Origin: a virus
UHGV virus genome: UHGV-2192570
DNA length: 21,366 bases
Reading direction: 5' to 3' (one strand)
Shown here: positions 12,001-15,000 of the stretch, one piece after another
Numbering within the stretch: the first letter of the stretch is position 1
How the letters are laid out: every line of letters starts with the position of its first letter
Made by a program: the position numbers

Positions 12001-15000
12001 GCCGCAATGATGGGAGGTGATGCCATAGTGAACGTTGTATGTAAATCAGGTGGTGTTGACTGGATTCATAACTGTTGGTCAACTGTTAAGTGCGTTGGTG
12101 ATGTAATAAAAAAATAACAGTTGCCATACTGAAGGTATTGATTAATACATGGAAACTGCAATTACGACGTGTGATTGCAGCTTACCGTTAGCTACCCCTG
12201 TTACAATTGCCCTCTTCCATCACAGCAAAATGCTACCCCCTTCACAGCCCCCTCGGAAGCCCCTCCGATGGGGTGAAAAATCCCTGAAAAACTGCGCAAA
12301 AAACTGCGCAAATCGATCATAAAACCGATCACAAAACCGATCACACAGACAAACAGAGCAAAGCCAGATATGACGCGGCTTGCAGGGGGATAGACCACCT
12401 CAAAAAGTGCGCAAAAAAATGCGCAAAACGAAACGCAACAGCCGCGCAAAACGAAACCGATACGCGATGATCGAAAAAGCGCGCAAATTTACCGGATTCG
12501 GGTAAGCAATTTTGCCTGATTTGGGCAAAATACGGTGTCGCCGTAACAGTGACATTGACACCAAAACAGTGACACACAGGAGGGCCGATGACCGAACGTT
12601 CACCAACAGAGATAATTCACGGGATTATTGAAGAGCAGGAGGAGCGTGAGTTAATCCTCATGATTGAAGAGCAGAGAGAACGCCAGCGCAAACAGGACGG
12701 CACGCAGTCGGACAGCGTGAGCGCAGAAAATTATGCGCGTGTTGTGGCTGATGTGCCGTGATGGTGTCGAACAGAGTAACTTAAAGTCACTCTGTGACCA
12801 GTTTTAAACGAGTCGCAAAAAGAGCCGGAGAAAAACCACGAATCTGGGGTTTTTTCTAAGCACGCTGTACACGGTGGAACATATGGTGGTCAGGAGACGG
12901 CAGGAGCAACGCCAGAACGCGCCCCGTACCAGTGGCATAAGCCGGAGCGGTTACGGCGGTAACTTGTTGATATTGTTCCAGAGTGCAAATTTGCACTTTG
13001 GCGCTGTAACTTACTGACCTTAAAGCAAAGCGCAAAATTGCGCCGCCTAGTGATGTAAGTATCTGGTATTGTTACAAAGCTCATTTTTGAGCTTTGGCCT
13101 AACCTACTGATATTTTCGGAAACCTCAATTTGAGGAGACCGCAAACGCAAAATTGCGCTGGCTACATCCCTCGCTTCTGAGGACTGTTAACAAGCTGCCT
13201 GAAAGACAGTCACAAGCTACGAAATTTTCGTAGGTCAACTTCTATCCAGTACATACCCAGAATTACGGGTATGTAACCACAGCTATTACGAGGTGATCGT
13301 TGATGCGTGACATTCAGCAGGTTCTGGAACGATGGGGAGCGTGGGCGGCAAATAATCACGAGGATGTGACCTGGTCATCCGTTGCTGCCGGATTTAAGGG
13401 ACTGATCCCCGAAAAAGTAAAATCACGTCCACAGTGCTGTGACGATGATGCGATGGTGATATGCGGGTGCATAGCCCGCCTTTACCGGAACAATCGCGAT
13501 CTGCATGACTTGCTGGTTGATTACTACGTGCTGGGGAAAACGTTTATGGCGCTGGCACGTAAGCATGGATGCTCTGATGGACATATCGGAAAGCGGCTAC
13601 AGAAAGCGGAAGGTGTTGTTGAAGGCATGCTGATGATGCTGGATGTGAAGCTGGAGATGGATCGGTATGTTGAGCGCGATTCAGTGACGGCATAACGCGC
13701 ATAAAAAAAACCGCAGCCATGAGGAAACTGCGGTGGAGAAATACGGCTTGCCAATCAATCATGAAAAACGTAATCGCCTGATAATTATGCCACGAGACAA
13801 AGGACGGTGCACCCTGAATGGTCATAATGACCACTCAGACCATCAAGGCAACCATAACGAACATCGTTACGGTTGGAACTTTTACCCCATTGGGGGAAAA
13901 GGTGCATACCTGAATCATCATTATGGTGATCAAGGGTATGTAAAGCCCACCAGCCTGATTAAAGGTTAACCGGAAAAAGCCAGGTATGGAGGGAGTGGTT
14001 AGCCACGAACAAGCCGGACACCGCGCCAGTAAAAACCACAGATTCGTGCTTTTCTTCAGCCAGGGTAAGAACGCCACGGGGATTAATCCGTCGTGCTGGT
14101 GGAATCAGTCGGCAGCATGACGAACAGGCCGCGCAGCCGGACACCGCCAGCAGAAGGTATTATGATTTTCGTAATACCTTTAGCAAAGCGTGAATCATCA
14201 TTACCGTAGGGATGGTCATAATGACCACACCTTCCCCCACCGGAACAAGGAAGGCTGGCCTACGAAAATTTCGTAAAATTCCCCCCAAAATCCCTCCCAC
14301 GGTTGCCCGTTAAGTGCAAGCGCACAGGAACGACCTCGTTAACCAGTTACCAGCGCTCACGCTCAAATATCCACATGAACGGGGATAAATCGCATTCTGG
14401 CGCAATGTTCACTATCGGGGCGAGCATTCAGCGGAAAGCGTCATACAGGCTTACAGGCGGCTTAAAATTCGATGGACGGAGGACCGGATGGGAATCGGGA
14501 GACCTGGACAAAAAGTGCAGGCCTCCATGACACGGTCAGGACAGTTTGTGTTTAACCAGAATATTTAGCGCCTGTATCGGGGCTTCGTGGAGTTCCCGCA
14601 GACATTCAGGGTCAGTTACATGTTCCTGGTATCTTGTTTTCTCAAGTAACAAGCGGTGCATGTGCAGCATACGGGCAAGAGCCGCGCACACCTCCTCAAA
14701 TGCGGTATCCCGCTTACCGTCACTGTCAGAGCCACAAAACAGCGGCACAACCTCCACGCCGTCGCTGTGGGCCTTTAGCCAGGCATCAACCACGGTTAAA
14801 TCATCGGTGAAGAACCACGCACTGTTAGCGCTGAATCGCATTTTCCAGGCTTCCGGTACTGGTTGCGGGGAGTATGAATATGCTGGTGGTATCTTGTCGT
14901 GAGTATCCATAGGCTATCGTTCCGTCATTCTGTTATTCACCACGGCGCTAAAAACGCCATGAAGGACCAGAATACCGATTGCCTCGTTTGCTGTATGAGG

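Follow-up and report, generated by a model that had tools for sequence, protein, structure and literature searches.

A phased hexamer array in a tRNA-Gly phage satellite, collinear with a region inside phage terS genes, as a candidate pac site

The pac-type satellites SaPI1 and SaPIbov1 (staphylococcal pathogenicity islands, SaPIs) encode their own TerS and are packaged by the headful mechanism from a pac site. Packaging by headful from a pac site is also described for the Vibrio phage-inducible chromosomal island-like element (PLE), a pac-type satellite (PMC11417361). The cos-type phage-inducible chromosomal islands (PICIs) of Escherichia coli depend on a cos site of the lambda cosN kind and on the TerS of the helper, and in one of them, EcCICFT073, Rpp interferes with helper packaging (PMC6739421). 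In phage P1, pac is a 161 bp site inside pacA, with seven hexamers distributed in two clusters (HEX4 and HEX3) and with a role for Dam methylation and the integration host factor (IHF) (PMC10028697). Satellites carrying helper packaging sites, and the design of P1 pac, are already known. Here we describe a repeat array in the viral genome record UHGV-2192570, of which a stretch of 21,366 nucleotides (the window) was analysed. The array belongs to an integrative phage satellite at tRNA-Gly, not to a plasmid, and the search of this element (1-15431) revealed neither terminase nor capsid genes. Because it has no terminase or capsid gene of its own, the element needs some cis-acting packaging signal to spread. 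We believe, with reasonable though limited confidence, that the array (12286-12487) reproduces, in non-coding form, a P1-type pac site serving headful packaging by the TerS and TerL of a helper phage of the Shiga toxin (Stx) type. By the same sequence comparisons, the homologous region inside terS of the Stx2a-converting phages (Sepvirinae) and of related temperate enterobacterial phages would be the pac site of those phages themselves.

The array and its homology to phage terS genes

The preliminary description of this DNA had drawn attention to at least six same-orientation copies of GCGCAAA, and this is confirmed here. The copies start at 12294, 12306, 12409, 12421, 12444 and 12481, all of them on the plus strand, and the heptamer occurs 12 times on both strands of the window against 5.2 expected, a count that none of 100 shuffles reached. 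The interval 12293-12487 holds these six GCGCAAA and every TGCGCA (4/4) of the window, in a 12-bp phase. It is the palindromic hexamer TGCGCA, together with YGATCR, that forms the core of the repeat, rather than GCGCAAA. Tandem Repeats Finder reported period-12 tandems at 12287-12312 (unit AAAAACTGCGCA, 2.2 copies), 12310-12345 (unit AAACCGATCACA, 3 copies) and 12402-12428, and a separate repeat search of the window recovered the same repeat families. The tandem repeats described earlier are real as far as these period-12 units are concerned; the AACAGTGACA pair, at 12545 and 12565, is present but not significant when taken alone (at least four one-mismatch matches in 7 of 100 shuffles), and it falls outside the conserved module.

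The array, read on the plus strand, consists of two clusters around a unique centre. The left cluster (12286-12345) has five hexamers at 12293-12343, namely TGCGCA at 12293 and 12305 and CGATCA at 12314, 12326 and 12338; its unit is an A-tract plus a hexamer, phased at 12 bp, and each CGATCA contains a GATC Dam site. The central spacer of about 55 bp (12346-12400) comprises the block AAAGCCAG...ATGACGCGGCTTGCAGGGGG, with ATGACGCGG at 12370-12378, and by analogy with P1 pac it would be the region of cleavage. In the right cluster (12401-12487), TGCGCA at 12408 and 12420 and TGATCG at 12468 make three exact hexamers, accompanied by two degenerate ones (CGCGCA at 12443 and 12480) within 12408-12485, and AAAACGAAAC is found at 12425 and 12448. 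The GATC sites of the array (12315, 12327, 12339 and 12469) are supplied by the three CGATCA and the one TGATCG, so that YGATCR with GATC makes up 4 of about 10 hexamers, the rest being of the TGCGCA type and devoid of GATC. There are stops in all three forward frames across the array, and the Prokaryotic Genome Annotation Pipeline (PGAP) annotates no gene in the homologous stretch of the E. coli relatives, in agreement with the earlier statement that no credible open reading frame (ORF) covers it. We also considered the array as a decayed coding region and rejected this, every frame being broken and a "NATAAQ" resemblance to Terminase_2 being unsupported by tblastn. An Rfam scan at gathering thresholds gave no match in the array. 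Its RNA-folding z-scores, significant on both strands (plus, -4.6; minus, -4.0), do not speak for an RNA, because tandem palindromes account for them. At the level of the sequence, there is support for the general idea put forward before, that the repeats are not random and form a phased array for protein binding, but for none of the three functions named with it (partition site, second origin or regulatory scaffold).

Megablast and blastn searches of the array region against plasmid and phage collections yielded no match; BLAST missed the similarity to terS, probably because the low-complexity filter hid it, and it was a motif scan that revealed it. When viral contigs were scanned for TGCGCAAAAAANTGCGCA, that is, tandem TGCGCA-N6-TGCGCA, at least 120 loci were obtained. 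Among the 120 matches listed, 115 had at least four TGCGCA within 800 bp and 114 had the tandem inside a terS gene. The same scan of genome contigs was set aside as too unspecific, with mostly chance or terminator-like matches from unrelated phyla, and L030, L052 and L082 were the only informative contigs among the matches listed. In the phage genes, the tandem lies about 140-170 nt past the start codon of terS, directly after a conserved N-terminal helix-turn-helix (HTH) with the pattern …DW…L…TGIS…WC…GLNYxTARRYIK. TerS proteins with as little as about 43% identity, and with C-termini of two different families, show this layout, and the N-terminus plus array is common to two unrelated TerS bodies, one of the Terminase_2 type (L052, L030) and the other of the Sepvirinae type, which is that of the short-tailed Stx2a-converting phages and their relatives. 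The latter was found by tblastn in 254 phage records, including P13374, phage 86, TL-2011c and phi191. Such an N-terminus followed by an array is seen in L172 (4211-5062), L052 (36-1130) and L244 (1501-2307).

The satellite array and the phage terS region are homologous along their length. A MAFFT alignment of three satellites and three phage terS was collinear with invariant centre and right blocks, and the ATGACG-G--TT of the central spacer, invariant in these six sequences, was kept in eight satellites. In P13374, terS has four YGATCAT phased at 12 bp, followed by …CAATGACGCGGG… and further on by AAAAATGCGCAAAAAACTCTGAAAAAAACTGCGCAAATTCGGCAGAAACGAAACGG, while the PhiR12_3-like terS of L172 has TGCGCA clusters on both sides and, in its right half, AAACGAAACGCAACAGC, 17 nt that are identical in the window. 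The collinear alignment of the array with these two terS genes spans about 160 bp: its left cluster aligns with the YGATCAT cluster of P13374 and with a TGCGCA cluster of L172, and all three sequences share both clusters, the right one with AAACGAAACG, as well as the ATGACGCGG centre. The tandem TGCGCA pairs are spaced 115 bp apart in the window and in L172 alike. Smith-Waterman scores against dinucleotide shuffles gave z = 11.6 for P13374, 10.8 for L172 and 7.8 for GER2. The terS region of the Sepvirinae (P13374, phage 86, TL-2011c) and that of the PhiR12_3/GER2 type therefore resemble the array in being collinear with it and in carrying the right TGCGCA pair with AAACGAAACG. They differ from it in that the phage region is coding (the TerS linker) whereas the satellite copy is non-coding, and in that the left cluster of the satellite is a TGCGCA-then-CGATCA hybrid and its right part is longer by a second AAAACGAAAC unit.

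Codon use in the phage genes bears on what these repeats are kept for. Of 101 distinct terS 5' regions, 91 had the hexamer TGCGCA in two or more reading frames. Across 97 terS genes, the Ala of the linker AQ dipeptides was encoded by GCG in 447 of 505 cases, against 360 of 1682 (21%) elsewhere in the same genes, and the wobble base preceding that Ala codon was T in 479 of 505 (95%), with the Gln wobble base free (204 CAA, 301 CAG). The scan pattern itself fixed two hexamers per terS gene, and the GCG excess persisted once those had been removed. By this synonymous-site constraint, TGCGCA in phage terS is held as DNA rather than as peptide.

The N-terminus of these TerS proteins is PacA-like. 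Its profile matched the N-terminus of P1 PacA with an hhalign probability of 92% (E = 5e-7), and full-length BLASTP of TerS against PacA gave E = 7e-4 over residues 1-137. A search of PDB sequences with the same profile returned spurious matches only. The P1 record annotates pacA, the IHF site and the pac cleavage sites, which are inside pacA, and the pac hexamers are four TGATCA on one side of the cleavage sites and TGATCG, TGATCA and TGATCA on the other. Since the HTHs are homologous and the cluster layout matches, the phage terS arrays have the place of P1 pac relative to the HTH, as well as its bipartite design. These sequence relationships suggest that temperate enterobacterial phages exchange the PacA-like HTH and its hexamer array as a mobile cassette of packaging specificity.

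Persistence of the module and the packaging slot of cos-type islands

We compared eight satellites, namely that of the window, L001 to L003, L198 and L248 to L250. All of them keep the module, so that the repeats, whose conservation in related genomes had been in question, are indeed conserved. The module measures 169-205 bp from the first TGCGCA to the last TGATCG and has sharp edges, the flanks diverging right after TGATCGA in L248-L250 and after one extra TGCGCA in L002. Within it, AAAACGAAAC...GATGATCGA is nearly invariant and the copy number shifts by whole 12-bp units with the phase kept (2-3 TGCGCA, 3-4 YGATCA); the base preceding TGCGCA may be C, A, G or T, the hexamer itself being kept. 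Upstream of the module there may be a lipoprotein gene, a pair of PerC genes or a Dcm methyltransferase gene, and downstream of it the small ORF with Q, YeeE, or simply the end of the element; the replication modules of the array-bearing satellites vary too.

Outside the conserved module, a spacer (12488-12587, plus strand) precedes a small ORF and contains an inverted repeat, ATTTTGCC/GGCAAAAT, in addition to the AACAGTGACA pair. This spacer is identical in L001, L003 and L198, and unrelated sequence takes its place in L002, L248, L249 and L250. The replacement in L248-L250 has a GTAAC-TTAAAG-T inverted repeat, and a similar one, ACAGAGTAACTTAAAGTCACTCTGT, is present in the window after the small ORF, at 12771-12795. 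The inverted repeats of these spacers (12510-12574 and 12771-12795) suggest a movable operator-like element.

The small ORF (12588-12761, plus strand) encodes 57 amino acids, and its description as an acidic ORF with a strong Shine-Dalgarno sequence directly downstream of the array holds: AGGAGG is at 12578-12583, and the ORF is conserved, with 80-89% identity to its satellite homologues. It had one weak PHROG match, to a family with no function assigned there. Its counterpart in L251, an EcCICFT073-type PICI, is a 93-aa ORF (L251:13368-13649), of which it is a truncated homologue corresponding to the N-terminal part with 51% identity; window 12701-13233 matches 13439-13757 of L251. There, the lambda cosN (AGGTCGCCGCCC on the displayed strand) comes just after a TerS-like gene and directly upstream of the 93-aa ORF. 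Because the L251 cosN precedes the homologue of the 57-aa ORF, the array occupies the packaging-site slot of cos-type PICIs. The window has neither cosN nor cosQ; the best matches to cosN GGGCGGCGACCT carried 2 mismatches and were located elsewhere in it (3 against 1.03 expected, a number reached in 7 of 100 shuffles). As the small ORF stays beside the packaging site in both types of satellite, it may be a packaging accessory factor.

The satellite, its likely replication origin and the neighbouring island

The element begins with an integrase gene (1-1254) and carries a DUF927 primase-helicase gene (6628-8769) and, to the right of the array, a Q antiterminator recognized by Pfam (13300-13695). 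Its further features are an int-alpA RNA, Rha, AntA, an ORF with an Ash domain, SSB, ProQ/FinO, PerC and a lipoprotein-like ORF. Relatives at about 92% identity, adjoining tRNA-Gly or other sites, were found in 118 of 5,426 complete E. coli genomes; the copies were chromosomal in 126 cases out of 126, and the hosts belonged mostly to serotypes of Shiga toxin-producing E. coli (STEC). An attR-like copy of the tRNA-Gly 3' end, TTCCCTTCGCCGCTCCA (15413-15431, plus strand), marks the right end of the array-bearing satellite. Anywhere in the window, tblastn disclosed no other piece of terS, neither its HTH-coding nor its C-terminal part, and no Rpp/TerS-like gene.

Beyond about 15410, the sequence is 99.8% identical to another island in E. 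coli strains that are unmatched by window 13700-15409, which is satellite sequence. This separate island (15410-21332), with 99.8% identity to E. coli LR-29-1 and EEC_W5, bears genes for a gpE-like major capsid protein (17787-18863, minus strand) and a gpD-like decoration protein (18811-19194, minus strand), as well as two low-GC cargo ORFs (15958-17401) for which neither Pfam nor PADLOC gave a match. The island has the appearance of an EcCICFT073-type PICI remnant that integrated in tandem at tRNA-Gly. Since the sequence past that point is a different island, the gpE- and gpD-like genes at 17.8-19.2 kb are outside the satellite, and their assignment to it was rejected.

The likely replication origin is at 8790-9090, directly after the primase-helicase gene, with at least 13 TGGGAC(A/G)AC iterons in two inverted sets together with AT-rich tracts. 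In L001, the primase-helicase has only its first 148 residues in common with that of the window, the helicase part being unrelated, and the slot after the gene has iterons of the form TGTTCACC, which we take to be the P4 type I iteron, instead of the TGGGACAAC of the window. The two satellites represent a clean case of swapping of an initiator and iteron module. Despite the unrelated helicase domains, their GCGCAAA arrays are 92-95% identical. As the iterons co-vary with the initiator and the array does not, the array is not the origin.

Some observations concern the remaining genes. Rfam matches to isrK (5653-5729) and to the C4 antisense RNA (5754-5841) both lie inside a mechanically called ORF of 677 aa (4033-6066), which has the Ash domain at its C-terminus; because these RNA matches fall inside the frame, the ORF may be partly spurious. 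A P1/P7 C4-type immunity RNA module may control the genes downstream of 5653-5841. The satellite Q is about 88% identical in nucleotide sequence to the Q of Stx phages of the 933W/VT2-Sakai type and, judging by this likeness, could act on the late promoter of the helper, which also drives stx2. Upstream of Q there are a perfect palindrome, TGCAAATTTGCA (12986-12997), and an inverted repeat, GCGCAA-AA-TTGCGC (13030-13044), which reuses the GCGCAA motif of the array.

A packaging model, its alternatives and related systems

According to the model that we favour, induction of the helper phage would be followed by excision of the satellite and by its replication from its own origin at 8790-9090. 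Helper TerS would then bind both 12-bp-phased hexamer clusters (TGCGCA and YGATCR) through its N-terminal PacA-like HTH, possibly in a Dam-dependent manner, and would recruit TerL, which would cut in the unique centre at about 12346-12400. Satellite concatemers would finally be packaged by headful into helper capsids. The chimeric composition of the array, with TGCGCA plus YGATCA hexamers, perhaps lets two TerS specificity groups use it.

Several results weigh against this model. The array and P1 pac show no significant sequence similarity (Smith-Waterman score equal to the mean of the shuffles, z = 0.5), the IHF consensus WATCAANNNNTTR is absent from 12250-12520, including the centre, at one mismatch or fewer, and the partner TerL has no detectable similarity to P1 PacB. 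Among the satellites, substitutions affected 6 of 48 hexamer positions against 35 of 133 other positions, a weak conservation excess (p = 0.07), and the second right-hand TGCGCA was lost in L001 and L003. Pattern-restricted scans for the hybrid TGCGCA-CGATCA junction retrieved, among the matches listed, satellite L198 only and no phage, and our literature searches found no paper mapping the pac site of Stx or Sepvirinae phages. Co-occurrence in hosts, on the other side, speaks for the model: 429 of the 5,426 E. coli genomes carried a Sepvirinae-type terS, and 6 of 60 sampled genomes with such a terS were among the roughly 58 listed satellite hosts, where about 0.64 would be expected under independence; this estimate comes from partial lists and is confounded by STEC clonality.

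The same hexamer data could suggest that the array is a non-functional relic, that is, a decaying terS fragment acquired by recombination with a helper and kept by descent or as a homology patch. It clearly derives from terS-type sequence that no longer codes, it includes the decayed CGCGCA at 12443 and 12480 in addition to the hexamer lost in two satellites, and the excess of hexamer conservation is not significant. We nevertheless consider a relic unlikely, as only the repeat-bearing stretch of about 190 bp has been kept, with no HTH-coding or C-terminal part of terS in the window, and as this sharp-edged module survives in satellites with different flanks on either side and different replication modules. 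Moreover, it sits in the cos slot of cos-type PICIs and changes by whole 12-bp units without losing phase. The evidence for a binding site would apply equally to a decoy that titrates or misdirects helper TerS and lowers helper packaging, rather than packaging the satellite, and satellites commonly interfere with the packaging of their helpers, as Rpp of EcCICFT073 does (PMC6739421). Such a role seems to us improbable: an element without terminase or capsid genes needs a packaging signal in cis, no other candidate such as cosN was found, and a pure decoy leaves the positional replacement of cos unexplained.

Other explanations dispense with TerS altogether. Both a conserved small ORF and Q lie downstream of the array, so that it could contain operators through which a satellite or helper regulator acts on the 57-aa ORF and the Q operon, as in the regulatory scaffold proposed in the preliminary description, or minus-strand intrinsic terminators made of TGCGCA palindromes and T-runs. 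A consensus scan does give terminator-like hairpins on the minus strand, the folding z-scores are negative, and the related palindromes GCGCAAAATTGCGC and TGCAAATTTGCA are found upstream of Q. Yet there is no sigma-70-like promoter in or adjoining the array, the folding signal does not differ between the strands, as tandem palindromes predict, with no Rfam match, and in phages the repeats are part of the coding sequence of an essential gene, in which a terminator would do harm. The array also persists where the small ORF and the spacer are replaced or absent, and even without Q (L002, L003, L249), which speaks against a scaffold for the 57-aa ORF; for transcriptional control in general we see little probability. 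Even less probable is that the array is a second origin, with iterons for the primase-helicase, or a ParB-like partition centromere, both of which had also been put forward. Same-orientation phased repeats, A-tracts and clustered GATC do resemble some origins. Nonetheless, it is the canonical iterons after the primase-helicase gene that are exchanged together with the helicase domain (TGGGACAAC against TGTTCACC), while the array remains nearly the same, and a centromere does not fit a satellite that is integrated in the chromosome in every E. coli copy and has no Par-type domain (ParA or ParB) in the ORFs scanned.

If the packaging model is correct, the pac site of Stx2a phages would be located at about nt 130-320 of terS, which gives a definite position and layout to test for packaging in medically important phages, and the PacA-like HTH and hexamer array would be a mobile specificity cassette common to unrelated TerS families. 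The model would also explain how the widespread PerC- and Q-carrying islands of STEC are mobilized without packaging genes of their own, Stx2a-type (Sepvirinae) phages of enterohaemorrhagic E. coli (EHEC) being the probable helpers. Because it carries a Q933-like antiterminator and PerC homologues, the satellite could modulate the yield of the Stx phage and the expression of virulence genes. A fragment of about 200 bp conferring Stx-phage-dependent transduction would help in following how virulence and defence cargo spreads in EHEC, and practical uses could include packaging-competent phagemids for Sepvirinae capsids or decoys lowering Stx-phage yield. More tentatively, and with less assurance than for the array itself, we propose that the element represents a class of TerS-less pac-type satellites endowed with a chimeric, non-coding copy of the terS-embedded pac of a Sepvirinae helper. 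Literature searches on satellites of Stx phages retrieved nothing relevant, and satellites of this kind, without TerS and with a chimeric pac copy directed at Stx phages, seem not to have been reported before.

Compared with P1 pac, the array has the same two phased hexamer clusters around a unique centre (about 55-90 bp), and some of its hexamers are YGATCR with Dam sites; the phage homologues share with P1 a site inside terS, just downstream of the PacA-homologous N-terminal HTH. Unlike P1 pac, the satellite copy is non-coding and outside terS, has no HTH-coding sequence upstream, and uses as its main hexamer TGCGCA, which lacks GATC, instead of TGATCA/G. With the cos-type PICIs (EcCICFT073 cos1 and redirection by Rpp), the element shares the lack of a complete terminase of its own, a packaging site that would be recognized through the helper terminase, and the location of this site in the same slot, directly upstream of a homologous small ORF. 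It departs from EcCICFT073 in having no Rpp/TerS-like gene and in its hexamer repeats, which imply headful rather than cos packaging. Finally, whereas the SaPIs and PLE bring their own TerS and a pac distinct from that of the helper, the element described here lacks TerS and appears to copy the site of its helper.

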